A stretch of DNA of 64,000 nucleotides from Escherichia phage LHE83. This document shows, in pieces, positions 20,003-50,102 of this stretch. Both the position numbers and the translations under genes were made by a program. Location of the stretch: the sequence record OQ561750. The stretch is one strand, 5' to 3'. The first letter of the stretch is position 1; the number at the start of each line of letters is the position of its first letter. The notes beneath the pieces were generated by a model. That model saw only the letters and a program-made list of their open reading frames with translations, searched no databases and was not told the DNA's origin.

Positions 20003-20031
20003 GTTTACAAGGTCTATAGGCATGATACTAT
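20003..20031 (+). promoter_or_regulatory. Early promoter (GTTTAC-N17-TACTAT) with conserved TATAGACCTATCAA box
   Basis: -35 GTTTAC and -10-like TACTAT at 17-nt spacing, 37 nt upstream of ATG 20069. Confidence 0.55.
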
Positions 20032-20068
20032 AGACCTATCAAAACAAACTAACCAAACGGAAATCAAA

Positions 20069-20293
20069 ATGAAAACTTATCAAGAATTTATTACCGAAGC
20101 TAAAAGACATGAAGATGAACTGCCAATTGTTACAAAAACCTTTGATGGCACACTGGCTGATTTTAAAAAAGTCCCTAGTGATAAGCTTGCTAAATTGACT
20201 GGCTCTATCAATGAAAAAGATGGCAAGGTCACGTTTTCTGCTGGCGGCATAGCCAATCTTAAAAAACTTTTGAAAGCCGCTGGCGCTGAATAA
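20069..20293 (+). CDS. Internal-protein-like capsid protein (ipI locus), N-terminal capsid-targeting sequence MKTYQEFITEA
   Basis: 74 aa; N-terminus matches T4 internal protein CTS (MKTYQEFIAE); located next to 57B like T4 ipI. Confidence 0.6.
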   Translation: MKTYQEFITEAKRHEDELPIVTKTFDGTLADFKKVPSDKLAKLTGSINEKDGKVTFSAGGIANLKKLLKAAGAE

Positions 20294-20294
20294 A

Positions 20295-20567
20295 ATGAAA
20301 TCATACCAAGAATTTATCGCTGAATCTATTCTTAATGAAGAAGTAAAAATTAACAAATCTGTTAAGACCATGATTGATAATATAAATCATCTCTATAACA
20401 TCGATTTGACTAATCACGTAACTTTAGGCAATAAGCGAAACTTTTTTGTTTTTGATACTTCAGAACTCGACCAGAATCAAATTAACAATATTGAACGTTT
20501 TGCTAATGAAAAAGGGCTGCGCCACGAGACGGCTGGTTATAAAAAATATGCAATTTATTTAAAATAA
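20295..20567 (+). CDS. Second internal-protein-like gene (CTS MKSYQEFIAES)
   Basis: 90 aa; same CTS-like N-terminus, divergent body; 1-nt spacing after previous gene. Confidence 0.55.
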   Translation: MKSYQEFIAESILNEEVKINKSVKTMIDNINHLYNIDLTNHVTLGNKRNFFVFDTSELDQNQINNIERFANEKGLRHETAGYKKYAIYLK

Positions 20568-20569
20568 TT

Positions 20570-20599
20570 GTTTACAACGGGCTTTAGTGATGGTACTAT
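20570..20599 (+). promoter_or_regulatory. Early promoter (GTTTAC-N18-TACTAT)
   Basis: Motifs upstream of ATG 20636 with conserved CTATCAAAACAA box and GGAGAATAAA SD. Confidence 0.5.
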
Positions 20600-20635
20600 A
20601 GCCCTATCAAAACAAATGAGTGATTGGAGAATAAA

Positions 20636-20821
20636 ATGAAACGTTGTGAATTAATTAGAAATGCTACTGCACTGGCCGCTGTTACTGCTTTTGGCTTTAG
20701 TATGTTTGCAGGATTCATGCTCGATATGCTTTCAACTTCCGAGAATATAATCTCTTTAGTAGTGGCATTCTTAATTGGTTCAATTTCTTTCGTTATGGAT
20801 AAAATCTCTAAAGGTGAATAA
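20636..20821 (+). CDS. Small membrane protein (61 aa)
   Basis: Internal ATG after SD GGAGAA; hydrophobic TM-like segments. Confidence 0.45.
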   Translation: MKRCELIRNATALAAVTAFGFSMFAGFMLDMLSTSENIISLVVAFLIGSISFVMDKISKGE

Positions 20822-21228
20822 TGAACATTGAATATTATGTATATGCGGATTATGAAAATAATCCGTCTAAAGATGAAGATAACCGTTTAGGTGTAGATGC
20901 TTTTGAATCCCCTGCTGCAGCTTGGCAATGGGTTGAAAGTACCGATATTCCTTACCGTTATATTGAAGTGGTAGACCAAGCAGGAAACAAGTATCCTAAG
21001 GAAGCATATGTTCCTTCTGGTAAAGTAAATTTCCTTCTGTTCGCAGGTGATAACTATTATCCACGTGGCGGCTATACCGATTTAATCGCTAAAGCATTTT
21101 CTGAAGACGAACTACGTGATATTATTAACGAAAATGAGAAAAAGCCTCGTTACGGTTCTAATCGTTTTGACTGTGACTGGTGGCAGATTGTTAATGCTAA
21201 TACCCATACTATTGTAGACGAGGGTTAA
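20821..21228 (+). CDS. Hypothetical protein (135 aa)
   Basis: ORF with TAATG overlap to upstream gene; no recognised motif. Confidence 0.45.
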   Translation: MNIEYYVYADYENNPSKDEDNRLGVDAFESPAAAWQWVESTDIPYRYIEVVDQAGNKYPKEAYVPSGKVNFLLFAGDNYYPRGGYTDLIAKAFSEDELRDIINENEKKPRYGSNRFDCDWWQIVNANTHTIVDEG

Positions 21229-21519
21229 ATGCTATACGTTAAGGTTACTAATCCAGAGAATGGCTATAATTCAGACCAGGTTGCAGCAGAGCTACTGATT
21301 CGCAACTTTGGCAAAGGTGCTGTGCTTGATGTCCAACAGGTTAATATTGGTCGTAGTTCAAGCGACGTTAAACTAAAAGTTAATGGTCGCCGTTATAATT
21401 CTGTTAACTTTACTTTCTACACCGCAACTGAAAACAGATTGATCGAATACGACATCTTTAAAAATCCTTTGAAGATTGCTTCTATTAAACTTGATTACAT
21501 TAATATGTGGCCACAATGA
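21229..21519 (+). CDS. Hypothetical protein (96 aa)
   Basis: ORF immediately after previous stop (TAAATG). Confidence 0.45.
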   Translation: MLYVKVTNPENGYNSDQVAAELLIRNFGKGAVLDVQQVNIGRSSSDVKLKVNGRRYNSVNFTFYTATENRLIEYDIFKNPLKIASIKLDYINMWPQ

Positions 21520-21693
21520 ATCAAATTTGACCAGACTATTCCTAAAAATAGTAATATGCTTTAAGAGTAATGTGTTATTATTACTCTATCATTAATACCC
21601 TCTATTACCAAAGGTTCTTCCCTCAAAGAACCTTTCATAATAGACAAGGTCTATTAATCAAACTTACTTTACTTAATTTTATTTGAGGTGTTT

Positions 21694-21960
21694 ATGTTAG
21701 TATTAAAATTAGCTTTTTATGACCCGGCAACCAAGACAACCACTACCAAACGTTGTTCTATTTCGTATGAATGTCAATTTGGTGAAGTTGAGACCGACGG
21801 CGAGCCCTTTATGGCAATTGCCGATAGCACATTCGCTAAACCAAAAATAATTCCACTAGTTAACGCTGCGGCTTATCTGGTTGCTCCTGAAGAAATGACT
21901 TATCATACAATTCAGCACATGGCTAAAGATGATAATGCTCCTGCTGGATTTGTAGTTTGA
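21694..21960 (+). CDS. Hypothetical protein (88 aa)
   Basis: ATG after GAGG SD; ends 5 nt before tRNA. Confidence 0.4.
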   Translation: MLVLKLAFYDPATKTTTTKRCSISYECQFGEVETDGEPFMAIADSTFAKPKIIPLVNAAAYLVAPEEMTYHTIQHMAKDDNAPAGFVV

Positions 21961-21965
21961 TTTAA

Positions 21966-22039
21966 GGCCCTGTAGCTCAATGGTTAGCAGCAGTCCCCTC
22001 ATAAGGGAAAGGTTACCGGTTCAAATCCGGTCTGGGCCA
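21966..22039 (+). tRNA. tRNA with anticodon CAU (Met, or Ile2-type reading AUA as in the T4 tRNA-Ile)
   Basis: 74-nt cloverleaf: 7-bp acceptor stem (one U-U mismatch), anticodon loop CUCAUAA, T-arm ACCGG-TTCAAAT-CCGGT; position matches T4 tRNA cluster. Confidence 0.65.
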
Positions 22040-22080
22040 TATTTTAAGAACATAAATACTCTTAGAAATAGGAGATATTT

Positions 22081-22746
22081 ATGTTCCATTACACTTATAA
22101 AATAACAAACAAAATTAATAATAAAATCTATATAGGCGCCCATTCAACCGAAAATTTGAATGATGCATATTTTGGTTCTGGTAAACTCTTAAAAAGGGCC
22201 CAGGCCAAATACGGTATAGAAAATTTCTCTAAAGAAATATTAGAGTTCTTTGACGATAAAACCTCTATGTTTGAGTCAGAAAAGAATATTGTGACTAAAG
22301 AGTTTTTAAAGCGCCCCGATGTTTATAATTTGAAATTAGGTGGTGAAGGTGGTTGGGACCATTTAAACACTGAAGAATATTTAGATAAAAAGAAAGAAGC
22401 TTCCTTAAAAGGAGTTGCCGCTTTTAAAACCAGATTTGAGAACGACCCAGACCTTAAAGAAAAATATCGTAAAATGGGTTCAGAAAAGTTTAAACAACTT
22501 TGGGATAATCCTAAGTATAGAGAGAAATTTTCAAATACTAAATCTTTCTTGGGTAAGACCCATTCAGATGAAACCAAAAATAAAATGAAAGAATCTCACG
22601 CCAGAAATAAACATCAACAAGGTGAAAATAATTCCGGATACGGAAAAATGTGGATTCATTCTTTAGAAGAAAAAGTTTCTAAACGTATTAACAAAACGGA
22701 TATTATTCCTGAAGGTTGGAATAAAGGTCGTAAAATAAAATTTTGA
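22081..22746 (+). CDS. segB: GIY-YIG homing endonuclease, SegB-like, inserted in tRNA cluster
   Basis: 221 aa; N-terminal HYTYKITN...NKIYIGAHS...YFGSGK GIY-YIG pattern; basic NUMOD-like C-terminal repeats; same location as T4 segB. Confidence 0.6.
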   Translation: MFHYTYKITNKINNKIYIGAHSTENLNDAYFGSGKLLKRAQAKYGIENFSKEILEFFDDKTSMFESEKNIVTKEFLKRPDVYNLKLGGEGGWDHLNTEEYLDKKKEASLKGVAAFKTRFENDPDLKEKYRKMGSEKFKQLWDNPKYREKFSNTKSFLGKTHSDETKNKMKESHARNKHQQGENNSGYGKMWIHSLEEKVSKRINKTDIIPEGWNKGRKIKF

Positions 22747-22751
22747 ATTAC

Positions 22752-22826
22752 GTCCCGCTGGTGTAATGGATAGCATACGATCCTTCTAAGTTTGCGGTCC
22801 TGGTTCGATCCCAGGGCGGGATACCA
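22752..22826 (+). tRNA. tRNA-Arg (anticodon UCU), CCA encoded
   Basis: 75 nt; 7-bp acceptor stem, anticodon loop CUUCUAA, T-arm CCTGG-TTCGATC-CCAGG, 3-prime ACCA. Confidence 0.7.
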
Positions 22827-23205: not shown

Positions 23206-23206
23206 A

Positions 23207-23236
23207 AAGGCCCTTCCGAAAGGTTGGGCCTTTTTT
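23207..23236 (+). terminator. Intrinsic terminator (GGCCC...GGGCC + T6)
   Basis: GC hairpin followed by TTTTTT; identical copy at 23832. Confidence 0.65.
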
Positions 23237-23237
23237 G

Positions 23238-23245
23238 TATAAATA
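23238..23245 (+). promoter_or_regulatory. T4-type late promoter TATAAATA
   Basis: Exact TATAAATA 28 nt upstream of ATG 23274. Confidence 0.5.
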
Positions 23246-23273: not shown

Positions 23274-23828
23274 ATGAAACTTTTAAAATATTTTAGTTGG
23301 GTTCTGTTGGTCCCACTAGATTTTATCTCTATGGTTCTGGCTGTTATCCTTGCACCATTTGTGGTTCCTTTCCACAATAAAAAGACAGGTAAATTACCGT
23401 ACGGCTTTGATTGGATGATGACATACGATAATCCAATTGACGGTGATAAAGGTCATATTAAACGTTGGGCTAACATCAGGAAAATGCCTGGTGGTGTTTA
23501 TCTCCAGAGGGTAGCTTGGCTATGGCGAAATAAAGCTTATAACTTTGCTTACCATAAACTTGGACGCGATTGTAGCTCAGAATTCCATTATCGTGGTAAT
23601 CCTGACGTTGAATCCGGTTCTCCTGATAAAGCTCATCATGGATGGTTATGGATGTGGAATGACGAAGCATGGGGAGTCTTTGCTTCAGTTCCGTATCTTA
23701 AAGTAGGTGGGATTACCTTTTACCTTCGTGTATACTGTGGTTGGAAACTTAAGAGTCTTTTGTCTCGTAAAATCCCTAAGGCTATGTTAGCCTTCCACAT
23801 AAACCCATTCCGGTTCTACAAGAACTGA
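23274..23828 (+). CDS. Membrane protein (184 aa), late-promoter driven, flanked by identical terminators
   Basis: N-terminal hydrophobic helix (WVLLVPLDFISMVLAVILAPFVVPF); Trp/His-rich body. Confidence 0.55.
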   Translation: MKLLKYFSWVLLVPLDFISMVLAVILAPFVVPFHNKKTGKLPYGFDWMMTYDNPIDGDKGHIKRWANIRKMPGGVYLQRVAWLWRNKAYNFAYHKLGRDCSSEFHYRGNPDVESGSPDKAHHGWLWMWNDEAWGVFASVPYLKVGGITFYLRVYCGWKLKSLLSRKIPKAMLAFHINPFRFYKN

Positions 23829-23831
23829 TTC

Positions 23832-23861
23832 TAGGCCCTTCCGAAAGGTTGGGCCTTTTTT
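23832..23861 (+). terminator. Intrinsic terminator, duplicate of the 23207 terminator
   Basis: Same GGCCCTTCCGAAAGGTTGGGCC + T-run sequence directly after stop codon. Confidence 0.65.
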
Positions 23862-23886
23862 GTTTCTAAAAAGTTTAAAAAAAGAT

Positions 23887-23915
23887 GTTTACTCTTTCGT
23901 AGAACATGATACTAT
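23887..23915 (+). promoter_or_regulatory. Early promoter (GTTTAC-N17-TACTAT) with TATAGACCTATCAA box
   Basis: Motifs upstream of ATG 23951. Confidence 0.55.
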
Positions 23916-23950
23916 AGACCTATCAAAACCACAGTGTGAAGGAGAGTAAA

Positions 23951-24214
23951 ATGGATAATTATGGTGAAGTGTTTAATTTCTTTATGAAATGCGTTCCTGA
24001 AGAATTTGGTGCTACTGTTAACGATATTAAAGTTATCGGTCCTGAACACCCGGTGTATGAAACCTATGCAGTAATGGGTAATGAAGATGGACAGTGGTAT
24101 ACAATTAAAGTTGTGATTAATATGTTCTCAGCTGAAGGTTACGCCAAATCGTCTACCAAAGTTTACCATGGTAATGATTTTGATGCAGAAAATTATTTCA
24201 ATAATATGAAATAA
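23951..24214 (+). CDS. Hypothetical protein (87 aa)
   Basis: ATG after GAAGGAGAG SD. Confidence 0.45.
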   Translation: MDNYGEVFNFFMKCVPEEFGATVNDIKVIGPEHPVYETYAVMGNEDGQWYTIKVVINMFSAEGYAKSSTKVYHGNDFDAENYFNNMK

Positions 24215-24217
24215 AAC

Positions 24218-24248
24218 GTTTACATGGGCTCATGATTAAGATATTATG
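24218..24248 (+). promoter_or_regulatory. Early promoter candidate (GTTTAC ... TATTAT) overlapping inverted repeat GGGCTCAT/ATGAGCCC
   Basis: -35 GTTTAC seen; -10 assignment uncertain (spacing about 19). Confidence 0.4.
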
Positions 24249-24272
24249 AGCCCATAATTTGAGGAGAACATA

Positions 24273-24671
24273 ATGAATATCGAAGATAAAGAAATGCAAG
24301 AGTTGTATAATTCATTAACACCTGAACAACAAAAATATGCCAAAGAACTAGAGAAAGCTCTTACTTTCAACTTGGCAAAAACTGATTGGGCCGCGATGTA
24401 TGAAGAAAAAACTAGATTAGAAATTGAAGCTGCTGAGAGAAATGAATGGGTTGTCGAAACCAAGATTTCTGATGGTGGTTGCTCTGTTGAGGTGTCAGCT
24501 GTAGTTAAAGGTACTCATGGCGAAAAATCATGGGGCTGGCATAATGAAGCAAACAAATGTATTGTTCTCTCAACGTCAAAAACTTATGGCCAAAGGGCTC
24601 CTGTATCCAAAGCTATTATTAAGCAAGCTCAATGGGAAGCCAATGAAATCTGCCTCGCAAAAATGAAATAA
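24273..24671 (+). CDS. Hypothetical protein (132 aa)
   Basis: ORF with GAGGAGAA SD. Confidence 0.45.
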
Positions 24672-24674: not shown

Positions 24675-24704
24675 GTTTACAAACCTCAGAGGACAGGGTA
24701 TAAT
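24675..24704 (+). promoter_or_regulatory. Early promoter (GTTTAC-N18-TATAAT), -10 embedded in GGACA/TGTCC inverted repeat
   Basis: Consensus hexamers seen. Confidence 0.55.
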
Positions 24705-24747
24705 GTCCTCATGGATTACAAAATATCAACCAACTGAAGGAAATACT

Positions 24748-25341
24748 ATGAACACTTTAAAGAAAATCGTTGAATTCATTCGTTCTAAACTGGGCACCGC
24801 AATGGCTCAGAACCTGTCAATCGAAGACCAATACACCAAAGCTGCTTCTACTCTGATTGATAAAATCACTGAACTCCAGACTGCTCATGTTAAGTCTGTG
24901 AATGAAGAAAAACGTATTCGTGCATTGGCTAATGAAAAAGACCAGCTCGCTGCTTCTAAAGAACGTGAAATTCGTAAACTGATTGCCGAAGGCGCTGATG
25001 TCCAGGTACATGCTAAACTTGGCCTCCTTTATCGTCGTACAGCTACCCAGCTTCGTAAGAAAGCCGATGATTATATCGAAATGCGTAATGAAATTAAACT
25101 GAAGGTTAAGGAACTTGATGACTCTCGTCAGGAACTGGCTGTTAAGCTCGAGTACATCCGTGAAACTCGTAATATGGCTGCCCTTGGTATTGCTACTGCC
25201 GACGATGTTGTTGAAATTGCTGCACTGACCAAGATTGATATCGAAGACACCCTGATGCGCGTAGAAACGTTTAAAGGCCCGCAAGTTGGAATGGATACGA
25301 CTTCTGCTGATATCGAAGACTACATTAATTCACTTAAGTAA
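24748..25341 (+). CDS. Coiled-coil protein (197 aa)
   Basis: Internal ATG with AAGGAAA SD downstream of promoter; heptad-rich helical sequence. Confidence 0.45.
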
Positions 25342-27559: not shown

Positions 27560-27889
27560 ATGCATAAAGATTCAGTATTCAAATATCTTTTGAAAACAAA
27601 TAAAGAATTCTATATGAATGGACAGGCCTTCTTGTTCGTTCGTGGTAAACGTGAGATGTTTTACAAATGCGACCTCTCAATGCACCATCATATGTATCAC
27701 ACCCATGGTGAGCCTATACTGGGATTCTCTGGTGACGAGACTAGACACATAGCTATGTACTACGACCATTTTAAGCTCAATGATTGCGGTGACAACGCTC
27801 TGGTCTGGAATCCATCTTGGCGTCGTTGGGATACAGTAGACAACGATAAATTATTTTTAGAATATTGCAGAAGTGATGTACAACTCTAA
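27560..27889 (+). CDS. Hypothetical protein (109 aa) with His-rich segment HHHMYHTHGE
   Basis: Internal ATG after AGGAGG SD. Confidence 0.45.
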   Translation: MHKDSVFKYLLKTNKEFYMNGQAFLFVRGKREMFYKCDLSMHHHMYHTHGEPILGFSGDETRHIAMYYDHFKLNDCGDNALVWNPSWRRWDTVDNDKLFLEYCRSDVQL

Positions 27890-27932
27890 AAATACGTGTT
27901 ACTATTACCTTACACAAACATGAGGAGTACAT

Positions 27933-28172
27933 ATGTGGTATTACGCCCCGATGTCCGATAAGTCTAATGAACCGGTACGCATTACTCGTGCCAAGTTTAA
28001 AAAGATTTATGGCTTCTCTTATAAGAAGTCTGATTACGGTGTTCGTTTTGAAGATGCCCACTGTATCAATGACCCTTATGCTGAAGAAATCTCTAATGAG
28101 ATAATTCCTATCATTAAGAATAATTCTGATGATATGTGGGAATTGCATAACGATTACGTTGCTGAAATTTAA
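27933..28172 (+). CDS. Hypothetical protein (79 aa)
   Basis: ORF with GAGGAG SD. Confidence 0.45.
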   Translation: MWYYAPMSDKSNEPVRITRAKFKKIYGFSYKKSDYGVRFEDAHCINDPYAEEISNEIIPIIKNNSDDMWELHNDYVAEI

Positions 28173-29165: not shown

Positions 29166-29194
29166 GTGTACAAGGTCTATAGGTGTGATACTAT
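29166..29194 (+). promoter_or_regulatory. Early promoter (GTGTAC-N17-TACTAT) with TATAGACCTATCAA box
   Basis: Variant -35; same cassette as at 20003 and 23887. Confidence 0.5.
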
Positions 29195-29231
29195 AGACCT
29201 ATCAAAACAACAGAGTGAAATGGAGAATAAA

Positions 29232-29444
29232 ATGAAACTTTCTAACCAAGCAATCAACATGTTAAACGAAGTTCGTGCAGCTGGTGCTAAATGCCTGATG
29301 GTTAACACTCGTGACGGTGACCTTCGTCAAGCATTTGGTGAATTGAAATCTGCTGACCTGGTTAAATGTTCAGTTGGTATTGGTAACGCACTTCGTGTAT
29401 CCTTATCCCCTAAAGGTAAAATGTACTTTTTCAACAAAAAGTAA
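29232..29444 (+). CDS. Hypothetical protein (70 aa)
   Basis: ATG after GGAGAATAAA SD. Confidence 0.45.
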   Translation: MKLSNQAINMLNEVRAAGAKCLMVNTRDGDLRQAFGELKSADLVKCSVGIGNALRVSLSPKGKMYFFNKK

Positions 29445-31934: not shown

Positions 31935-31963
31935 GTTTACATCTCCTAGAATTGTGATAGTAT
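31935..31963 (+). promoter_or_regulatory. Early promoter (GTTTAC-N17-TAGTAT)
   Basis: Motifs upstream of ATG 32017. Confidence 0.5.
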
Positions 31964-32016
31964 ATCTACAGTTACTTGAACAGACCAATTAAAATATTTA
32001 CCTTTAAGGAATCCGT

Positions 32017-32613
32017 ATGAAAACGTATAAAGAATTTATCGCCGAAGCTTCTGTAGGAAAGGTCCAAGGCATTAATAAAGATGAGTGGACTTACAAAGGA
32101 AACGGCGTTGACAACCCAGGAAACGGTTTTGACGCTAAAACAGCTCCTATTGAACGGTATTTAGCTACAAAGGCTTCTGATTTTAAAGCTTTCGCCTGGG
32201 AAGGACTTCGCTGGCGTAACGACCTAAATATTGAAGCTGATGGACTTAAATTTGCCCATATCCAAGATGTTGTTGCTAGTAACTTGGACGCAGCTTTTGT
32301 TAAAGCTGACGGTGACCTTCGTCGCTGGAATTTAAAACTGTTCTCTAAACAGAAAGGTCCTGTATTTGTACCTAAAGCAGGTAAATGGACTATTGATAAT
32401 AAATTGGCTAAGGCGGTCAACTTCGCCGGTCTTGAATTTGCCAAGCACAAATCAGCATGGAAAGGTCTCGATGCAATGACTTTCCGTAAAGAATTTGCCG
32501 ATGTTATGGCTAAAGGCGGCTTTAAGGCAGAAATAGATACCTCTAAAGGTACGTTTAAAGACGCTAATATTCAGTACGCTTACGCCGTTGCTAATGCTGC
32601 CCGTGGTAATTAA
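32017..32613 (+). CDS. ipIII: Internal protein III-like (CTS MKTYKEFIAEA)
   Basis: 198 aa (T4 IPIII 194 aa); CTS N-terminus; position e-ipIII-ipII-denV as in T4. Confidence 0.6.
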   Translation: MKTYKEFIAEASVGKVQGINKDEWTYKGNGVDNPGNGFDAKTAPIERYLATKASDFKAFAWEGLRWRNDLNIEADGLKFAHIQDVVASNLDAAFVKADGDLRRWNLKLFSKQKGPVFVPKAGKWTIDNKLAKAVNFAGLEFAKHKSAWKGLDAMTFRKEFADVMAKGGFKAEIDTSKGTFKDANIQYAYAVANAARGN

Positions 32614-32957: not shown

Positions 32958-33017
32958 CGGTTTATTTTTACGATAGTTGTGATATAGTGTTCTCATACAA
33001 ACATGGAGAACACTAAA

Positions 33018-33425
33018 ATGACTCGTATCAACCTTACCTTAGTATCTGAATTGGCTGACCAACACTTAATGGCTGAATATCGTGAATTACCACGTGTTTT
33101 CGGTGCAGTTCGTGAACGTATTGCCAAAGGGCAAGGCTTCTCTGATATCCCTAAAGACTTCCGCCTTGGTTCAGGGCACGTCAAGTTCTTTTATGACAAA
33201 ATTGGTTTTTTGTTCTTGCGACAAAATGCAATAATTGAGGAACTTCTGAAGCGTGGTTACCAGATTCAAAATACCCATGTAGACGTAGCGGATATTCCAT
33301 TACGGCTTATGAACGATTTCACTCCAACCGAAGCTGATATAGCTTTAAGCCAAGCTCGTCTGGACGAAAAAATTGCACAGCGTCCTACCTGGTACAAACA
33401 TTATGGCAAGGCTATTTACGCTTAA
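33018..33425 (+). CDS. denV: Endonuclease V (pyrimidine dimer DNA glycosylase)
   Basis: Starts [31 protein letters not shown] and ends [15 protein letters not shown], closely matching T4 DenV; 135 aa from internal ATG. Confidence 0.85.
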
Positions 33426-33468
33426 TTAAATCCGTGATAGAATACTTCTATCAACTTAAGGAATAACA

Positions 33469-33768
33469 ATGAAAACTTATCAAGAATTTATCACAGAAGC
33501 CAAAGCTCCTAAAGCATTTCAAATTGGAGTTCAAGGCAATTTAGACCAAGAATATGTTGATGCTATTGTAGCAAGCCTCGGTAAACAGGGCGTACAAGTC
33601 GATTTTGTTGATTTTACCAAAGGTAATACTTTTAATATTGTTACATCTAAAGGTTCTTTAGCTAAAGTTAAAAAGGCCTTTGGCGTAGCACAAGCATATG
33701 AAATCGACCACTCCGAATTAGAAAATAAAGGTCGCCAGAACACAATTAGAGGTTCTGGTTCTTTCTAA
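33469..33768 (+). CDS. Additional internal-protein-like gene (CTS MKTYQEFITEA)
   Basis: 99 aa; identical CTS-type N-terminus, unrelated body; downstream of denV. Confidence 0.55.
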   Translation: MKTYQEFITEAKAPKAFQIGVQGNLDQEYVDAIVASLGKQGVQVDFVDFTKGNTFNIVTSKGSLAKVKKAFGVAQAYEIDHSELENKGRQNTIRGSGSF

Positions 33769-35240: not shown

Positions 35241-35269
35241 GTTTACATCTCCTGTAGGTATGATACTAT
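35241..35269 (+). promoter_or_regulatory. Early promoter (GTTTAC-N17-TACTAT) inside 10-bp inverted repeat TCTCCTGTAG/CTACAGGAGA
   Basis: Hexamers plus conserved ACCTATCAA box; 3-prime arm carries SD of regB. Confidence 0.55.
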
Positions 35270-35297
35270 AAACCTATCAACTACAGGAGATTACAAA

Positions 35298-35756
35298 ATG
35301 TCAGAAATTAATTCAGAAGTATTCATCCGCCGCAATAAATTACGTCGTCAGTTCGAAACCGAATTCCGCGAACTGAATGCGTCCATCAAAAAAGCCGCCA
35401 TTAAGAGCGGAGTCCCAGCCTTCTTTATTAAGTACTCTAATCACTTGTTGGACCGTGCTATCCAACGTGAAATCGACGAAAAATACGTTTTTGCTTTATT
35501 CAAGCAACTCCATAACCATGTTAAAGAAATTCATGAATTTTTAATCCAGGAACCTCTGCCTGATGTAGAAGCCGAAATCATTCCTGGTAAAGTGTATCGC
35601 CCATTGCGTCTCGAAATTACCGATAAAACCTTATGGCTAGGTATGACTGTAGATCGTAAACATCCTGATAAAGGATACTCGTTAAAATGTCGTATGGCAT
35701 TTGTTAACTCTAAACGTTTAGAAGGTAAAACCAGCACGAAAGTAATCTATCTTTAA
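35298..35756 (+). CDS. regB: Sequence-specific endoribonuclease RegB
   Basis: 152 aa; EVFIRRNKLRR...HLLDRAIQREIDE...RLEITD...CRMA segments align with T4 RegB. Confidence 0.8.
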   Translation: MSEINSEVFIRRNKLRRQFETEFRELNASIKKAAIKSGVPAFFIKYSNHLLDRAIQREIDEKYVFALFKQLHNHVKEIHEFLIQEPLPDVEAEIIPGKVYRPLRLEITDKTLWLGMTVDRKHPDKGYSLKCRMAFVNSKRLEGKTSTKVIYL

Positions 35757-39107: not shown

Positions 39108-39112
39108 TCAAA

Positions 39113-39138
39113 GGTCTCACTTCGGTGGGACCTTTTTT
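39113..39138 (+). terminator. Intrinsic terminator (GGTCTCAC-TTCG-GTGGGACC + T6)
   Basis: 8-bp stem, TTCG tetraloop, T-run. Confidence 0.7.
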
Positions 39139-39147: not shown

Positions 39148-39176
39148 GTTTACATCCTCTAGGAACATGATACTAT
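39148..39176 (+). promoter_or_regulatory. Early promoter (GTTTAC-N17-TACTAT) with TATAGACCTATCAA box
   Basis: Same cassette as 20003/23887/29166. Confidence 0.55.
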
Positions 39177-39204
39177 AGACCTATCAACTAATGAGGAGAA
39201 CAGT

Positions 39205-39441
39205 ATGAAACTTACAAGTACTACGGTTTCATTAGAATATGAAATCAACGGTCGTATCCTTGAGATTAAGATATTCGACGACCGAAGTATCTTCGCTGAT
39301 TATCGAGGATACAGAATTCGTCTAGAAAAGGACGAGCTCAAGGAACCGTGGCTCCTTAAAGACACATTAAAGGGTTGTGGATGTAAACTGAAGACTACCC
39401 AAGCCCAAGAATTAATTTCTACTATCAACAAATACTGGTGA
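39205..39441 (+). CDS. Hypothetical protein (78 aa)
   Basis: ATG after GAGGAGAA SD. Confidence 0.45.
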   Translation: MKLTSTTVSLEYEINGRILEIKIFDDRSIFADYRGYRIRLEKDELKEPWLLKDTLKGCGCKLKTTQAQELISTINKYW

Positions 39442-41988: not shown

Positions 41989-41992
41989 TAAA

Positions 41993-42010
41993 GGCCTTCG
42001 GGCCTTTTTT
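41993..42010 (+). terminator. Intrinsic terminator (AGGCC-TTCG-GGCCT + T6)
   Basis: Hairpin and T-run immediately after stop. Confidence 0.6.
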
Positions 42011-42029: not shown

Positions 42030-42058
42030 GTTTACACTCTCGTAGAGCATGTTATTAT
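42030..42058 (+). promoter_or_regulatory. Early promoter (GTTTAC-N17-TATTAT)
   Basis: Hexamers plus GGACCTATCAA box. Confidence 0.5.
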
Positions 42059-42095
42059 GGACCTATCAAATCTACTGAGTGAAATGGAGAATATA

Positions 42096-43076
42096 ATGTT
42101 AACTATCAAAATCAACAAAGGTATCTATCGCGGTAATGTAATCTCTGGTACGTTCATGAGTTCAGGTAAAACCTGGTTCCCTAATAAAATTCATGAATCA
42201 GAAGCTCACCTCGGTGACGGCAAGGTATTCGTACAGATTGATGGTGTTGAACGTGGTGTATGGGTGTTCAAATGTGACGTTGAAATGGAAGGTGCTGAAG
42301 CTCCTGCAGTTGTTACTGAATCCGCTGAAGAAATGAAACATCGCATTAACAAACGTTTTAAAGTAATGAACATGATGACCAACGGAATCATCGATGGTAA
42401 AATTCGTTCCCTTATCATCTCTGGTGCCGCAGGTATTGGTAAAACGTATTCTTTGGATAAAGCATTACAAAATGCCCACGAAAATGAAACTATCGAATAT
42501 AAATCAATCAACGGAAAGATTAGTGGAATCGGTCTTTACGAGCAGCTTTGGAATAACCGCGGCCCTAATAGTGTTCTTCTTATTGATGATGTTGATGTAT
42601 TCTCTGATATGGATATCCTGAACCTGTTAAAAGCAGCATTGGATACCGGTGAAAAACGTAAGGTGTGCTGGAGCACTTCAAGTTCTTACCTCGATGATAA
42701 AAACATCGATAAAGAATTCGAATACGAAGGCACCATCGTGTTCATCACCAACGTTGATATCGACCGTGAATTAGAGCGTGGAACTAAACTTGCTCCACAC
42801 CTCCAGGCTTTAGTATCTCGTTCAGTTTACTTAGACCTCGGAGTTCACTCTAACGAAGAGATTATGGTCCGTGTTGAAGACGTTATCCTGTCCACTGATA
42901 TGATGCAAAACCGTGGTCTGACTGATGCCGAGACTTATCAAGCACTGTCCTGGATGAAGGCTAATGTATCTCGTCTTCGTAACGTATCATTACGTACAGC
43001 TCTTTATCTGGCGGACTTCATTGCCACCGATAAAAATGACTGGAGCGAAATCGCTGAAGTTACACTTCTGAAATAA
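42096..43076 (+). CDS. AAA/P-loop ATPase-like protein (326 aa)
   Basis: Walker A GAAGIGKT and Walker B VLLIDDVD; ATG after GGAGAATATA SD. Confidence 0.55.
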   Translation: MLTIKINKGIYRGNVISGTFMSSGKTWFPNKIHESEAHLGDGKVFVQIDGVERGVWVFKCDVEMEGAEAPAVVTESAEEMKHRINKRFKVMNMMTNGIIDGKIRSLIISGAAGIGKTYSLDKALQNAHENETIEYKSINGKISGIGLYEQLWNNRGPNSVLLIDDVDVFSDMDILNLLKAALDTGEKRKVCWSTSSSYLDDKNIDKEFEYEGTIVFITNVDIDRELERGTKLAPHLQALVSRSVYLDLGVHSNEEIMVRVEDVILSTDMMQNRGLTDAETYQALSWMKANVSRLRNVSLRTALYLADFIATDKNDWSEIAEVTLLK

Positions 43077-43430: not shown

Positions 43431-43459
43431 GTTTACATCTCCAGTAGAAATGATACTAT
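43431..43459 (+). promoter_or_regulatory. Early promoter (GTTTAC-N17-TACTAT) inside inverted repeat CTCCAGTAG/CTACTGGAG
   Basis: Same cassette architecture as 35241. Confidence 0.55.
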
Positions 43460-43485
43460 AGACCTATCAACTACTGGAGGTTATC

Positions 43486-44010: not shown

Positions 44011-44073
44011 ACGCTTTATACCAAGGATGGTATAATGGTTTTAGGTTCTTAATTACTTACTGAGGAAATTATT

Positions 44074-44916
44074 ATGTCACAGGCAATTAATCAAATTCGT
44101 TCTGAAGTTAAAAAAGTTGTTAAATTTGGTCGTATTCCGAGTTCTAAAGAAGTGGTTGAAAAGGTTCTATATATGATGTGGGACAAGTTCAATGTTTGTA
44201 CTGTTAAAGATGACTTCACTAAAATCTTTGATAAGACCAGGTCGTTTACCTTAGAAGACCGGGTCATGAAAACTCTTCGTAAAACAGGTATGTTGTCTCG
44301 TGCTAATGCCAAAATTATTCTTAAAAATTATAACAAAGGCTACGACCTCTATGGTCGTTTAATCCCGGCGATGTCATTTGACGAAGTGGTTCAAGACCTT
44401 CATGCCAACCAACGACGTCTACTAGCACTAGGTGCTCGCCTTGCAAAAGGTCAAGATAAACAAATGACCTTTAAGACTAATGGTTCAGGTGATTGGATTA
44501 TCTTTAGTATTGTTAACCACCCCAGAAATGAAAATGAGTATACCATTTCAACTTTTAGTGGTTGTCAATATGACAACTGGAAGTTCCATCTCCGATTAGC
44601 CTTGTCCGAATTAGAACAGCACGGTGTTCTTGGTTTTGGTGATGCCGAAACTGGGGTGGGTCAGCGTATTAAACTTTATAAAATTAAAGACCTGGCTGAA
44701 GAGCATTCAGAACAAGCTCCTAAACCGGAACCTGTGCCAGTGCGCAGCAATGAGAAGCATCAAGCCCAGATTGAGTATTTTAGCAATTTGCTTACTTGCT
44801 TGAATGTTACAATTCAACAACAAGATGATGAGATTTTCCGACTCTCTGGTCTGAATGCTAAAGCCAAGGCTGAACGTCAAAAATATATCGATATCCTAAA
44901 TCTTCTTAAGGATTAA
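44074..44916 (+). CDS. Hypothetical protein (280 aa), N-terminus MSQAINQ
   Basis: Leader ACTGAGGAAATTATTATGTCACA shared with gene at 51269. Confidence 0.5.
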   Translation: MSQAINQIRSEVKKVVKFGRIPSSKEVVEKVLYMMWDKFNVCTVKDDFTKIFDKTRSFTLEDRVMKTLRKTGMLSRANAKIILKNYNKGYDLYGRLIPAMSFDEVVQDLHANQRRLLALGARLAKGQDKQMTFKTNGSGDWIIFSIVNHPRNENEYTISTFSGCQYDNWKFHLRLALSELEQHGVLGFGDAETGVGQRIKLYKIKDLAEEHSEQAPKPEPVPVRSNEKHQAQIEYFSNLLTCLNVTIQQQDDEIFRLSGLNAKAKAERQKYIDILNLLKD

Positions 44917-46006: not shown

Positions 46007-46036
46007 GTTTACATCCAAGGACGGATGGAGTATAAT
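46007..46036 (+). promoter_or_regulatory. Early promoter (GTTTAC-N18-TATAAT)
   Basis: Consensus hexamers seen. Confidence 0.55.
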
Positions 46037-46063
46037 CTTTTTAAATCTACTGAGGAGAATATC

Positions 46064-47074
46064 ATGACTCGTACTGAATACATTAATGCCTTTACTACGT
46101 ATATCACTGCCAACACCCCTCCGTTAACCCCATACGAGGTAATAGTTTCTAATATCAATAAATGGGTCGACCAAATTGATGATGCATTATCGCGCTGTTT
46201 CAAAGCTGAAATCGAAAAGATTGCAGGCCGTTTGTGCATTCATGATATCATTAAAACATTTAAAGGTTCTCGACTGCTTTCGCGCCTGGTCAATAAGGAC
46301 ATCCTTTCTGAGTTCGGTAAAGAGAAATATCCAGGTTCCAACCGTGTTGTTAGCTACAAATGGTTTGGTGATACCATAAAAGGTTATATCAAAATTAAAG
46401 GTATGGACCCTAATAGTTTATTTCCGCAACGTTGGGTTAGCGAATTCAAGGCTAACTCTGCATTAATTCTCAAAGCGGCCTCTAAAACTATAGTTTCCGG
46501 TGATTGTCGTACTATTCACCCGATGGCTAATTGCATGATTAAAACAAATAGTTATAAAGGAAAAGCTATTATTTCTGTTATTTGGTCACCTAATAGGAAA
46601 CCTAAAGATGATGCGGAAGTTGTAAAGTATCAAGATATTGCTTACGATACCTTGAATACTATCGAACAAGCTTTAGCTCTGATGGATACCGTAGAGAAAT
46701 ATGAGACCCAAGAAGTTAAACACCACTTAGGCTGGAAAGGATATGAGGTCTTAGTAACAGTCCGTGAAATCAAATGTACCGTTCCAAAAACTGATGCTGA
46801 AATTTACAAAGAAAAATGTGAGGAAATTGTGAACACTGATAAAGAGCCTGCTACATTAGAAGATTTGATTAACGACTTGAACAGCCCTATCATGGCCCCT
46901 ACACCAATTACTAAATCCAAGTTACCGGAAGTCGTTGCCTTGGAAAAAGCGTATAAAGACGCCCTTGCTATCAACAAAAAACTGACTGGCCAATATACTG
47001 CTGCCAAGAAACTTTGGGAAGAGTCTACCAATCGTTTAGACCGTCTTGAACAGGCTCTGGAGCTGCTGAAATGA
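46064..47074 (+). CDS. Hypothetical protein (336 aa)
   Basis: ATG after GAGGAGAA SD; C-terminal coiled coil. Confidence 0.5.
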   Translation: MTRTEYINAFTTYITANTPPLTPYEVIVSNINKWVDQIDDALSRCFKAEIEKIAGRLCIHDIIKTFKGSRLLSRLVNKDILSEFGKEKYPGSNRVVSYKWFGDTIKGYIKIKGMDPNSLFPQRWVSEFKANSALILKAASKTIVSGDCRTIHPMANCMIKTNSYKGKAIISVIWSPNRKPKDDAEVVKYQDIAYDTLNTIEQALALMDTVEKYETQEVKHHLGWKGYEVLVTVREIKCTVPKTDAEIYKEKCEEIVNTDKEPATLEDLINDLNSPIMAPTPITKSKLPEVVALEKAYKDALAINKKLTGQYTAAKKLWEESTNRLDRLEQALELLK

Positions 47075-47605: not shown

Positions 47606-47606
47606 A

Positions 47607-48028: not shown

Positions 48029-48333
48029 TTGAATTAAACGAACAAACCATTTTTCTAGGTGATGGTACCGAAGATGACCTGGAATATAAACTATACGAAT
48101 ATATGGTTTGGTTGGCTAAAGCAGAAGGTATAGACTTTGCTGTAGCCCATCCATATGGCGAGAACACTGTTGTAATCGGCGGCACCGCTTACGAAGTCCA
48201 ATGGCAATACGTTGGCCTTGAATCTGAAGAATTTGAAGAAGATGAACACGGTGATTGGCATCCAGTCGGTCCTTGGTACTGGGAACACGGTGAACCTGAT
48301 TTTGAAGTAAGTAGTTGGTGGTGTGACCGTTAA
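48025..48333 (+). CDS. Hypothetical acidic protein (102 aa)
   Basis: Starts MIELNEQ, same 16-nt start sequence as 47867 ORF. Confidence 0.45.
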   Translation: MIELNEQTIFLGDGTEDDLEYKLYEYMVWLAKAEGIDFAVAHPYGENTVVIGGTAYEVQWQYVGLESEEFEEDEHGDWHPVGPWYWEHGEPDFEVSSWWCDR

Positions 48334-48440
48334 GCCATGGTATGTCGCTCGGTGGGATACGATAGAACCTACCGAGCCAGAGGAACCCGTTTACAACGAT
48401 TCCGAAATAGAGTATAATGAACCTTCAAACAATGATTTAA

Positions 48441-48650
48441 TTGATATGGAATATGGGTTTTACTATGAAAACTGAACTGATTTATACTGAAAAGTTAAAT
48501 GGCGGTAAAGTCTGGAAACTTCTTATTAAAGGAAGTCCTACTGATCAGTTTATGGCCACTTGTGTAGGGTTATACACCCGTCCTACTAAAAAGATGATTC
48601 GTCAATTTAAACGGTTGCATCGCTCGTTTTATAGTACATTTGAAAAATAA
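48441..48650 (+). CDS. Hypothetical basic protein (69 aa)
   Basis: ORF only; start uncertain. Confidence 0.3.
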   Translation: MIWNMGFTMKTELIYTEKLNGGKVWKLLIKGSPTDQFMATCVGLYTRPTKKMIRQFKRLHRSFYSTFEK

Positions 48651-48685
48651 TAAATACCCTTATCTAATAATGGTAAGGGTTTATT

Positions 48686-49159
48686 ATGTTGTTGACCGGC
48701 AAATTATACAAAGAAGAAAAACAAAAACTTTATGATGCACAATGTGGTAAGTGTTTGATTTGTAAACGTGAATTAAACCCTGATGTTCAAAGTAACCACC
48801 TTGACCACGACCATGAATTGAACGGGCCAAAAGCCGGTAAGGTTCGTGGTTTACTATGTAATCTGTGCAATGCTGCAGAAGGACAAATGAAGCATAAGTT
48901 CAACCGTTCTGGTCTTAAAGGTCAAAACGTTGACTACCTCGAATGGTTAGAGAATTTGCTGGTCTATCTGAAAGCTGATTATACTGAAAACAATATCCAT
49001 CCTAATTTCGTTCCTGATAAAACCAAAGAGTTCAGCAGGTTAGGTAAGGAAGAAATGATTGCTGAAATGCTTTCACATGGAATGACTTATAATGAATCTG
49101 ACACTAAGAAACAAATGGTCGATTCATTTAAAAAACAACTGAGGAAATCGCTTAAATGA
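48686..49159 (+). CDS. 49: Recombination endonuclease VII (Holliday junction resolvase)
   Basis: 157 aa (same as T4 gp49); CGKCLIC zinc motif and HLDHDHELNG catalytic H-N-H-like segment. Confidence 0.85.
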   Translation: MLLTGKLYKEEKQKLYDAQCGKCLICKRELNPDVQSNHLDHDHELNGPKAGKVRGLLCNLCNAAEGQMKHKFNRSGLKGQNVDYLEWLENLLVYLKADYTENNIHPNFVPDKTKEFSRLGKEEMIAEMLSHGMTYNESDTKKQMVDSFKKQLRKSLK

Positions 49160-49253
49160 TTAATTTTTATGCCTTAACCGAATCCATGAATGATATTATC
49201 CGGCGCATGGGTGTTGAGTATCCTGCTCAATGGTTATTTGTTGTAACTAATAC

Positions 49254-49481
49254 GTGGACTATCGTATGAACAAATTTCGTAATGCTGTCTCTGATATCCT
49301 GGCCAATATTACATTTGTCTTGTTTATCGTGTGCCTTTTAATCCTGGTCGTCCCATTTGGATTGCTGTTTATGATTATTGGTGCCCTGAGTACTGAAAAA
49401 GGTCTTGAAGGGTCTGAGTTCGAAAAACGAATCCAGTCTGTCCATGGTGTTATTTCTAAAATGATGAAGGTGAAAGAATGA
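49254..49481 (+). CDS. Small membrane protein (75 aa)
   Basis: TM helix ITFVLFIVCLLILVVPFGLLFMIIGAL. Confidence 0.4.
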   Translation: MDYRMNKFRNAVSDILANITFVLFIVCLLILVVPFGLLFMIIGALSTEKGLEGSEFEKRIQSVHGVISKMMKVKE

Positions 49482-49774
49482 AACGTTTTGAAGAATATGT
49501 AGCTACTAATTGGACCGCATGGGACAAATTCGGTGATGATTGGTACTTCCATGACTGTGACCTGAACCCGGAATTCTTTAAAGATAAGGAAGAAGACCTT
49601 AAAGACATCTATGTCCTGTCAGAGATTCATGGTATTAAACCGACTGTCTACTTCTCTTTTGATGACACCGGGTTCCTTATCCAGATTTACGTCCCGTATG
49701 GAACTAATGAGGACGAAGTTCTAAAAACCTGGGACTACCAAGGAGTTATTTCCTGTGGACCAAAAGTTAACTAA
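49478..49774 (+). CDS. Hypothetical acidic protein (98 aa)
   Basis: ATGA overlap. Confidence 0.4.
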   Translation: MKRFEEYVATNWTAWDKFGDDWYFHDCDLNPEFFKDKEEDLKDIYVLSEIHGIKPTVYFSFDDTGFLIQIYVPYGTNEDEVLKTWDYQGVISCGPKVN

Positions 49775-50072
49775 AATTGAGATTTACGGTATCCCTGAGA
49801 CAGTCATGCGCTGTCCAGGGTGCATTGCTGTTCTATCGCTCCTAAATTCCCTTTCTATCCCACATACTTTCTATCCTGTGATTAATCAGACGCCGTCAGG
49901 CGCAGTATATGACAAGCCTCTTATAGTATCATTGGCCAAACGTGCAGGCTTCAAGAGCTTAGCGATACGCTATCCTGTCATATTTGTCGATAATAAGAAA
50001 ATAGAAAATATTCCTGCCTTCAAATCGCTTTTGATTGAACTTGGTTATGACCGAGATTTAATTGAAGATTAG
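49755..50072 (+). CDS. Glutaredoxin/NrdH-like redoxin (CPGC motif)
   Basis: IEIYGIPETVMRCPGC thioredoxin-fold start. Confidence 0.45.
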   Translation: MDQKLTKIEIYGIPETVMRCPGCIAVLSLLNSLSIPHTFYPVINQTPSGAVYDKPLIVSLAKRAGFKSLAIRYPVIFVDNKKIENIPAFKSLLIELGYDRDLIED

Positions 50073-50073
50073 T

Positions 50074-50102
50074 ATTTACTTCCTCTCCTCACGTGTTATA
50101 GT
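50074..50102 (+). promoter_or_regulatory. Early promoter candidate (ATTTAC-N17-TATAGT) within inverted repeat CTCACGTGTT/AACACATGAG
   Basis: Hexamers and hairpin whose 3-prime arm carries SD GAGGAG. Confidence 0.45.

Follow-up and report, generated by a model that had tools for sequence, protein, structure and literature searches.

Early genes and promoter cassettes of the window

The window considered here is a stretch of 64,000 nucleotides (nt) of Escherichia phage LHE83 (record OQ561750), and our subject is a short cassette, composed of an early promoter, a leader and a Shine-Dalgarno sequence (SD), which recurs in its early region and, in part of its copies, can fold into a hairpin. On sequence grounds, the window is from a JS98/JS10/QL01-like Dhakavirus, among the T-even phages; identity with Escherichia phages QL01, WG01, MX01, JS10, IME08 and their relatives amounts to 92-96% over the 10-kb core of the finding. 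Early transcription runs along the + strand. The gene order, mapped from JS10, QL01 and MX01, begins with gp5/53 (late, - strand), followed by 4, 2, 3, 1, 57A/B, an internal-protein locus and tRNAs; it continues with the e.x genes, e, ipIII, denV, vs, regB, tk, rI and mobD, then with nrdC.x, 49, 55.x, 55, 47, 46, 45, 44, 62, regA and 43, and is collinear with the 40-76 kb early region of T4. A search of the window against Rfam returned two tRNAs only.

The promoter motif GTTTAC-N15-19-TACTAT was found six times on the + strand, where 0.05 occurrences were expected, and the looser [GA]TTTAC-N17/18-TAnnnT 18 times on the + strand and once on the - strand. When the -35 variants seen in relatives were allowed (-35 [GA]T[TG]TAC or GTTTAT, 17-18 nt spacer, -10 TAnnnT), the + strand was found to hold about 20 promoters, and this set of 20 sites is the one used below. 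A sequence-only reading of the window had pointed to nine repeated sites, all of which were indeed present on the + strand where it placed them; the copies at 24218, 24675, 27876, 31935, 32960, 33414, 46007, 48389, 50778, 51201 and 63848 came in addition. An independent repeat search also recovered the family (repeats D1-D3; 4-7 copies, 53-72 nt, 60-89% identity). The typical layout is an AT-rich upstream region, GTTTAC, a spacer of 17-18 nt and TAYTAT, usually with TGn, and all cassettes lie 25-61 nt upstream of an ATG with an SD. TGn directly precedes the -10 in 14/20 promoters, the predicted +1, located 7 nt past the -10, is an A in 16 of the 20, and the 25 nt upstream of the -35 have a mean AT content of 69%, vs 61% for the window. 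We infer promoter activity and start sites from what is known of T4 and of sigma-70; the copies examined of the T4 records NC_000866 and AF158101 contain no curated promoter or start-site annotation.

Placement was far from uniform, with 19 of the 20 promoters in 20.0-51.3 kb and one at 63.8 kb, directly after gene 43; the late genes (1-20 kb) and the replication-gene block (51.3-63.8 kb) had none. The genes that follow the cassettes are small variable ones of the plastic early region and include the T4-orthologous genes regB, denV, ipIII, nrdC.8, nrdC.10, nrdC.4, 55.6, 55.4, e.6, e.8 and trna.4. One further match, 41953-41982 (GTTTAC-N18-TATTAT), was left out, being inside the 3' end of nrdC.11 with no downstream start codon; it directly precedes the terminator at 41990-42007, is conserved in JS10, and is probably not a functional cassette.

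The cassettes and the terminators next to them are listed below. Hairpin z-scores were obtained for 18 cassettes, each folded from the -35 to the ATG as read-through RNA and compared with shuffled controls. In class I hairpins, the spacer pairs with the 3' half of the -10 and the discriminator; in class II, the spacer just 3' of the -35 pairs with the SD, and the -10 and a conserved box lie in a loop of 21-23 nt. The exact box is the 11-mer AGACCTATCAA, and the RegB consensus is that of strong RegB/S1 cleavage sites in T4 early mRNAs, GG*AGRAYARAA (PMC3014915).

20003..20071, + strand: cassette of an internal-protein (Ip8-like) gene; -35 20003-08, -10 20026-31, box 20032-42, predicted +1 A20038
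20010-19 pairing with 20028-37, + strand: class I hairpin of cassette 20003, z = -5.7
20570..20638, + strand: cassette upstream of trna.4, z = -2.0; box variant AGCCCTATCAA matched by spacer GGGCTTTAG, a compensatory variant of the class I stem; SD GGAGAATAAAA, a perfect RegB consensus
23833..23863, + strand: canonical intrinsic terminator (GC stem and T-tract) directly upstream of cassette 23887
23887..23953, + strand: cassette of an e.8-like gene; exact box, weak hairpin, z = -0.4
24218..24275, + strand: cassette without box; 13-bp stem ATGGGCTCAT../..ATGAGCCCAT enclosing the -10 TATTAT, z = -5.5
24675..24750, + strand: e.6 cassette; stem GAGGAC/GTCCTC around the -10 TATAAT, z = -0.8
27876..27935, + strand: weaker promoter with -35 ATGTAC, leader and GAGGAG SD, conserved in JS10, QL01 and MX01, z = -2.1
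29166..29234, + strand: cassette with -35 GTGTAC; class I stem as in 20003, exact box, SD a perfect RegB consensus, z = -2.8
31935..32019, + strand: ipIII promoter; no box, no significant hairpin, z = +1.0; left edge of several indels
32960..33020, + strand: denV promoter, GTTTAT-N17-TATAGT, z = -2.6; 3' half of the -10 and discriminator AGTGTTCTC paired with the SD region GGAGAACACT, the 5' arm ending just before +1
33414..33471, + strand: promoter (ATTTAC) of an internal head protein gene; box variant CTTCTATCAAC, z = -2.0
35241..35300, + strand: regB cassette, class II; 35248-57 pairs with the SD at 35281-90, -10 and box in the loop, z = -4.8
39110..39135, + strand: canonical intrinsic terminator immediately upstream of cassette 39148
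39148..39207, + strand: cassette of a 78-aa open reading frame (ORF); exact box, interrupted weak spacer/SD stem, z = -0.1
41990..42007, + strand: canonical intrinsic terminator upstream of cassette 42030
42030..42098, + strand: nrdC.10 cassette; box GGACCTATCAA; insertion site in JS10 and in loci L008 and L004
43431..43488, + strand: nrdC.8 cassette, class II; 43438-48 pairs with 43470-80, SD predicted to be sequestered, z = -3.6
46007..46066, + strand: nrdC.4 promoter (TATAAT) without box; SD masking predicted in read-through RNA, z = -1.0
48389..48455, + strand: promoter within a coding region, without box, conserved with the T4 promoter upstream of pin
50074..50134, + strand: 55.6 cassette (ATTTAC); strong stem between spacer CTCCTCA.. 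and SD ..TGAGGAG, z = -5.7
50778..50871, + strand: promoter within a coding region upstream of 55.4, conserved with T4
51201..51271, + strand: 55.2 promoter; stem GGGACC/GGTCC around the -10, z = -1.5
63848..63910, + strand: cassette right after the inferred end of gene 43; box variant CCTTCCTATCAA, z = -1.3

Conserved box, leader and putative RegB site

The conserved box which the sequence-only reading had singled out is real and abuts the -10, but it is not a separate element. The box CCTATCAA, present in ten cassettes, spans -6 to +5 and thus includes the predicted start site: AGACCT followed by ATCAA is the discriminator, the start site and the first bases of the leader. The 11-mer AGACCTATCAA occurs in exactly five copies (20032, 23916, 29195, 39177 and 43460), with one-mismatch copies at 20600, 35270 and 42059, and every copy abuts a -10 hexamer; a search with two mismatches returned 31 matches vs 20.9 expected, which is not above chance on its own. 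When IMG/VR loci L023-L084 were compared (T4 being locus L022), the exact 19-mer GATACTATAGACCTATCAA was found in 8-12 copies per Dhakavirus genome, always on one strand, and in 1-2 copies in other matching contigs, while the discriminator and leader of T4 are mostly ACAACTATCAAC or TACCCTATCAAC, vs AGACCTATCAA in the window. Such a genus-specific consensus suggests exchange among cassettes; it also suggests that the promoters of one lineage have evolved in concert, or along with a factor specific to that lineage.

At the 3' end of the cassettes, a second conserved block, GGAGAATAAAATG and its variants, is the ribosome site and matches the strong RegB-site consensus. GGAGRAYARAA with at most two mismatches was found at 10/20 cassette genes vs 1/71 other genes of the window, and GGAG lies within the SD of 11/17 cassette genes vs 9/74 others. 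The ribosome block may thereby double as a putative target of the endoribonuclease RegB, and regB (35298-35756) is itself among the cassette-driven genes.

Hairpins and cognate pairing within cassettes

Strong hairpins (z <= -2.6) were obtained in 7/18 cassettes, namely 20003, 24218, 29166, 32960, 35241, 43431 and 50074, and three further ones had z near -2. The class I stem is AGGTCTATAG/CTATAGACCT at 20003 and 29166, and ATGGGCTCAT/ATGAGCCCAT at 24218. Class II comprises 35241, 43431 and 50074, with weaker examples at 39148 and 23887, while at 42030 the 3' arm lies just upstream of the SD. In cassette 35241, TCTCCTGTAG (35248-35257) pairs with CTACAGGAGA (35281-35290), and in cassette 43431, CTCCAGTAG (43439-43447) pairs with CTACTGGAG (43471-43479). 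These are the two stems that had been quoted from the letters alone, at 35247-35290 and 43438-43477; both are real, the second being about 2 nt off (z = -4.8 and -3.6, respectively). The accompanying description, a hairpin loop holding the -10 and the box, fits class II, but in class I the partner of the spacer is the 3' half of the -10 together with the discriminator.

Stem registers differ between cassettes, and a mix-and-match permutation test, in which every spacer was paired with every cassette's downstream segment, was therefore used instead of a single consensus structure or covariance model. Cognate spacer/downstream duplexes had a mean of -11.5 vs -7.3 kcal/mol for non-cognate ones, and none of 100,000 permutations came up to the mean of the cognate duplexes (p<1e-5). 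The same test gave p<2e-5 for 17 promoters of T4 and p<=0.005 in 5/6 other T-even genomes recovered from IMG/VR via regB, one of them CC31. In T4, the regB, denV, ipII, mobD.2 and ipI promoters indeed have internal stems with z from -4.1 to -5.9.

The regB promoter illustrates how pairing is kept while sequence changes, since a spacer/SD or spacer/discriminator stem was retained in five clades with unrelated stem sequences: TCTCCTGTAG with CTACAGGAGA in Dhakaviruses, a 15-nt spacer segment with CAGTTAAGAGGAGAA in T4 (z = -5.9), TTTCTCCTCTTTAT with ATAAAGAGGAGAAA in another clade, and TCTCC/GGAGA nested around AGGGCTAT/ATAGCCCT in CC31-like phages. Within the window and its relatives, box and spacer vary together so as to keep pairing (AGACCT/AGGTCT, AGCCC/GGGCT and, in MX01, TACCCTATC/GATAGGGTA). 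Between the paralogous regB and nrdC.8 cassettes, a compensatory change from U-A to A-U was observed, with a G.U intermediate in MX01; formal pair counting, confined to the regB/denV/nrdC.8 subfamily, gave one compensatory pair.

Read-through RNA, predicted masking of the Shine-Dalgarno sequence, and terminators

The 5' arm of the hairpin lies in the spacer between -35 and -10, upstream of the predicted start site; RNA coming from upstream, or single-stranded DNA, is thus the only place where the hairpin can exist. It follows that the proposed regulation of translation by the hairpins does not apply to the transcript of a cassette's own promoter, from which the 5' arm is missing, but could apply to read-through RNA, where SD masking is predicted for about 7/17 cassettes. 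The unpaired probability of the SD core was 0.50 in the own transcript vs 0.32 in read-through RNA, and 0.45 vs 0.42 for controls (p = 0.015). The SD was at most 0.22 unpaired in read-through RNA in 7 of the 17 cassettes (35241, 43431, 46007, 50074, 39148, 63848 and 27876), and masking is also predicted for T4 regB and denV in long transcripts.

The upstream surroundings of the cassettes also bear on the role of the hairpin. Cassettes 23887, 39148 and 42030 have a canonical terminator just upstream and weak internal structure; altogether, seven of the 18 cassettes have z <= -2.6, three are near -2, three have a terminator just upstream and about five have neither. Among 264 unique cassettes, taken from all genomes retrieved, the mean fold was -7.3 kcal/mol when a terminator lay at most 70 nt upstream vs -13.2 kcal/mol without one (p = 3e-10), and this inverse association held after clustering at 75% identity (94 clusters, p = 0.002). 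The hairpin would thus be dispensable where a terminator stops incoming transcription, and is most simply read as an insulator against read-through RNA, which, as far as sequence comparison goes, is its most likely role.

Two of the terminators deserve a separate mention. Those at 23208-23238 and 23833-23863 are 100% identical over 31 nt (AGGCCCTTCCGAAAGGTTGGGCCTTTTTTGT) and stand on either side of one DUF7338 gene (23274-23828), which looks like a terminator-flanked gene module; QL01 has 500 bp extra at 23279.

Cassettes as occasional recombination substrates

Indels were compared between the window and nine Dhakavirus loci. The gaps of locus L017 (IMGVR_UViG_2974741249_000001) were excluded from the analysis; relative to the window, this locus has about ten gaps of about 100 nt replaced by 0-2 nt, which looks like an artefact of assembly or masking. 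The expectation that the repeats would be found at gene-content breakpoints held for individual events: several indels and replacements relative to JS10, QL01, MX01 and other Dhakaviruses cross over inside cassettes (23957/24262, 42048-68, 20616, 29149-69, 31914-34 and 35234). JS10 lacks window positions 23957-24262, so that the promoter and leader of cassette 23887 are joined to the gene of cassette 24218, with the junction inside the SD/ATG homology of the two cassettes. At 42048-42068, an insertion of 291-312 bp gives JS10, L008 and L004 one ORF more, of 73 codons, between two copies of a 38-nt cassette core; in the downstream copy, a chimera, the spacer of the inserted module is joined to the leader of nrdC.10, and the spacer/leader complementarity is lost.

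Other exchanges follow the same lines. The upstream edge of cassettes 31935 and 35241 is the exact insertion point of additional genes in QL01-type genomes, and a 399-nt gene stands before the ipIII cassette in QL01 and MX01 but before the denV cassette in JS10. Across genera, the T4 denV cassette matches the regB cassette of the window at 49/50 nt, while denV of the window has another cassette, which MX01 shares. Every genome has its own version of the internal-protein locus after 57B, and the breakpoints fall in cassettes or in conserved internal-protein leader codons. The cassettes are thus occasional recombination substrates, as observed in individual events and not as a significant enrichment; many or most indels lie at cassette-free junctions or involve homing endonucleases.

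Some observations concern coding sequence next to the cassettes. The internal-protein genes at 20069, 20295, 32017, 32655 and 33469 have a common N-terminal leader, MK(T/S)Y(Q/K)EFI (repeat family D4), whose codons AAAACYTATCAAGAATTT are similar to the promoter box AAACCTATCAA. Position 20091, which is 22 nt into the leader codons of the first internal-protein gene, is an edge of at least two indels between relatives, and the coding leader therefore adds to the recombinogenic homology. Similarity from the SD to codon 8-9 was also noted between 24260-24300 and 50119-50159 (88%; ORFs at 24273 and at 50132, the latter 55.6) and between 44050-44090 and 51245-51285 (85%; nrdC.6 and 55.2); the two genes of each pair differ in length and position, and paralogy or a recombination footprint may account for the likeness.

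Two gene-sized segments of the window are also variable. A GIY-YIG/NUMOD3 homing-endonuclease ORF of 221 aa at 22081-22746, which resembles segB of the T4 tRNA cluster, lies between tRNA genes at 21966-22039 and 22752-22823; a segment of about 712 nt here (window 21966-22823) is missing from QL01 and MX01, and JS10 has another arrangement with three tRNAs. Just upstream of gene 55, a 231-aa ORF (52179-52874) without a Pfam match occupies a 737-nt segment, 52129-52867, whose counterpart in JS10, QL01 and MX01 is only about 79 nt, and no cassette is near.

Discussion

This work indicated that what recurs here is the usual start signal of early genes in a T4-like coliphage, of a type already described as promoter-early stem-loop (PeSL) elements, and to that extent mostly ordinary. 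The PeSL-like architecture which the sequence-only reading had recognized indeed matches the published descriptions (Arbiol, 2010, PMC2839356; Comeau, 2014, PMC4122927). In RB49 and phi1, PeSLs likewise consist of an AT-rich upstream region, an early sigma-70-type promoter, a stem-loop, an SD and an ATG (PMC2839356), their stem-loops commonly lie between -35 and -10 or over the -10, like the class I stems of the window, and both kinds of element are concentrated in hyperplastic regions before small genes and found at some indel or replacement junctions. However, RB49 PeSLs have near-perfect TTGACA/TATAAT promoters and attenuating Gn-loop-Cn stems, whereas the window has the T-even GTTTAC/TAYTAT with TGn, and stems which are heterogeneous, lack T-tracts and in several cases run from spacer to SD, a geometry that the PeSL papers do not describe. 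T-even early-promoter elements were regarded as analogues and not homologues of PeSLs (Arbiol, 2010; PMC2839356), and so were, as that account reports them, the internal-protein-locus elements of Repoila et al. (1994), which sit on T4 early promoters and have weaker, AT-richer stem-loops (PMC2839356). PeSL-like sequences were also noted to flank g43 in JS98 (Arbiol, 2010; PMC2839356), and cassette 63848 stands at this very g43 locus. The PeSLs of PST and T4 are closer (Comeau, 2014; PMC4122927): they share the promoter consensus, TTTACW-N17-TAYWAT, and the same regions, including two internal-protein loci, and a stem-loop terminator just upstream, as drawn for PST, is found in the window at 23887, 39148 and 42030. 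That description places the stem-loops upstream of the promoter and makes no mention of internal stems such as those of the window and T4 (PMC4122927).

As regards the promoter itself, T4 early promoters have been described as "uber" promoters combining UP, -35, TGn and -10 elements (Hinton, 2010; PMC2988021). All four are present in the window promoters, which precede orthologous genes, and the difference lies in the genus-specific discriminator and leader, AGACCTATCAA in the window as against ACAACTATCAAC or TACCCTATCAAC, commoner in T4. In T4, genes e, soc, 49 and I-TevI have a hairpin whose 5' arm contains a late promoter, so that the SD is freed on late transcripts only (PMC3014915). The likeness is clear, since long transcripts of the window are likewise predicted to have a sequestered SD, the promoter lies in or next to the 5' arm, and its own transcripts lack that arm; by contrast, the T4 promoters are late and allow late-only translation, whereas the window promoter is early and translation would be early-only. 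The window consensus also matches RegB/S1 sites (PMC3014915) at the SD of early genes including regB, with the difference that several window sites are predicted to be paired in read-through RNA and, since RNA structure has been reported to protect GGAG from RegB (PMC3014915), would by this rule be protected. The spacer-to-SD geometry and SD-sequestering hairpins at early promoters were not found in the literature consulted, nor was the point that the 5' arm is untranscribed or the inverse relation with upstream terminators, although older T4 papers may cover them; no catalogue of such cassettes in Dhakaviruses was found either.

The explanation that we favor, with good confidence, is that the cassettes are immediate-early expression units with insulating hairpins, which also undergo occasional homologous recombination. 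It draws on the motif and its statistics, the cassette-specific complementarity, its conservation across genera and the individual recombination junctions. Each unit would be a T4-type promoter for the host sigma-70 RNA polymerase, with an AT-rich UP element, a -35 GTTTAC, a spacer of 17-18 nt usually ending in TGn and a -10 TAYTAT, fused to a discriminator and start (AGACCT followed by A at +1 and TCAA), a short C/A-rich leader and the SD block GGAGAAYAWAAUG. The spacer, otherwise free of constraint, would in about half of the cassettes have evolved complementarity to a downstream part of its own cassette. The transcript of the own promoter would start 3' of the 5' arm, and the hairpin would form only in read-through RNA from upstream, insulating the transcription units by masking the SD and the RegB site, so that translation would occur only from the own early transcript, in what would be an "early-only" version of the control of T4 gene e. 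Read-through RNA would remain untranslated and, at paired sites, uncut by RegB, and the hairpin may also provide the upstream message with a stable 3' structure. Near-identical direct repeats of 30-50 nt every 0.5-5 kb would, finally, support occasional homologous recombination that deletes, inserts or swaps small genes, as in the PeSL model. That the hairpin acts at the level of RNA and affects translation is what we infer from these patterns.

Several results weigh against this explanation. Eight of the 18 cassettes fold no better than shuffles, and only seven have clearly significant hairpins. Accessibility over 17 nt, from the SD through the AUG, did not differ between cassette genes and control genes; the SD is masked in only about 7/17 cassettes, and class I stems leave it untouched. 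SD masking is therefore only part of the story. G.U and A.C appositions in the stems numbered 6 and 6, which does not discriminate between RNA and DNA, and the asymmetry in folding energy between the + and - strands was that of random coding segments and was dropped as evidence of selection on RNA. As for gene shuffling, indels occurred at 9/16 cassette junctions vs 30/81 other gene junctions (odds ratio 2.2, Fisher p = 0.12); the earlier proposal that the cassettes drive modular shuffling holds for individual crossovers inside them, but not as a significant enrichment at their junctions.

Such results leave room for other readings of the stems. The internal hairpins might be transcription terminators or attenuators, as proposed for the PeSL stem-loops of RB49 and phi1, one of which cuts a downstream lacZ about as much as rrnB T1 does (Arbiol, 2010; PMC2839356). 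The inverse association with upstream terminators would be expected if the two were functionally interchangeable, and class I hairpins lie wholly upstream of +1. We nevertheless regard this as rather unlikely, given that no T-tract follows any of the seven strong hairpins (1-3 T in the next 8 nt; the class I leader is ATCAAAACAAAC), that true T-tract terminators are separate elements, at 23833-63, 39110-35 and 41990-42007, and that class II loops of 21-23 nt are unlike those of intrinsic terminators. Inverted repeats acting in DNA were judged improbable, whether as a cruciform or single-stranded hairpin serving recombination or template switching, or as an operator for a dimeric protein over the -10, for example in the shut-off of early promoters. 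With equal G.U and A.C counts and a background strand asymmetry, nothing ties the stems to + sense RNA; a DNA-binding recombination factor has been speculated upon, with GGGC/GCCC inverted repeats at T4 deletion endpoints cited (Arbiol, 2010; PMC2839356), and early-promoter shut-off has no known mechanism (PMC3014915). Yet stem sequences differ wholly between cassettes and clades while complementarity is kept, which argues against a sequence-specific protein site, and action in DNA predicts neither 3' arms at the SD nor weak hairpins below upstream terminators.

It may also be that the hairpins have no function, being by-products of quasi-palindrome templated mutation, gene conversion or shared descent, and that the repeats are merely strong promoters whose similarity is imposed by RNA polymerase. 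The eight cassettes without significant structure fit this, stems shared by descent among paralogues (20003/29166; regB/denV/nrdC.8) inflate recurrence, and the genus-specific discriminator, with its 19-mer in 8-12 copies per Dhakavirus genome, fits concerted evolution. The probability that we grant it is low, since Dhakavirus, T4, CC31-like and other clades have independent stems, of unrelated sequence, at one and the same place in the promoter, the inverse association with upstream terminators survives clustering, and SD masking differs from that of control genes. Finally, the cassettes could be autonomous mobile elements with a dedicated mechanism, such as site-specific recombination or mini-circles, instead of passive patches of homology. 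PeSL-PeSL mini-circles were indeed detected in RB49/phi1 (PMC2839356), an ORF insertion in JS10 is flanked by cassettes, and the same cassette precedes different genes in different genera; but the crossover points vary (upstream edge, -10/box, SD/ATG, internal-protein leader codons) and most indels of the region lie at cassette-free junctions or with homing endonucleases, which makes this very unlikely.

The repeats, as first noticed, extend the published concept of PeSL and T-even cassettes to a Dhakavirus, which is not surprising, and are of use for annotation and for understanding how accessory early genes are shuffled in therapeutic coliphages. The part that could matter more is the complementarity of the spacer to the SD or discriminator of its own cassette, compensated across genera and weak below terminators. 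From a mechanistic point of view, a possible but rather doubtful generalization is that spacer arms, anti-SD or anti-discriminator, are encoded in many immediate-early promoters across T-even phages, T4 included, so that an early gene would be open to translation and to RegB only on the transcript of its own promoter. If true, the result would be an "early-only" translational insulator of general occurrence, a counterpart to the late-only hairpins of genes e, soc, 49 and I-TevI and interchangeable with an intrinsic terminator upstream, and early genes would be silent and RegB-resistant on read-through or middle-mode polycistronic RNA. It would offer a simple rule for gene regulation in T4, namely translation only from the proximal early promoter, would bear on the incompletely understood shut-off of early gene expression, and would help to account for how sharply early proteins, RegB among them, are shut off.

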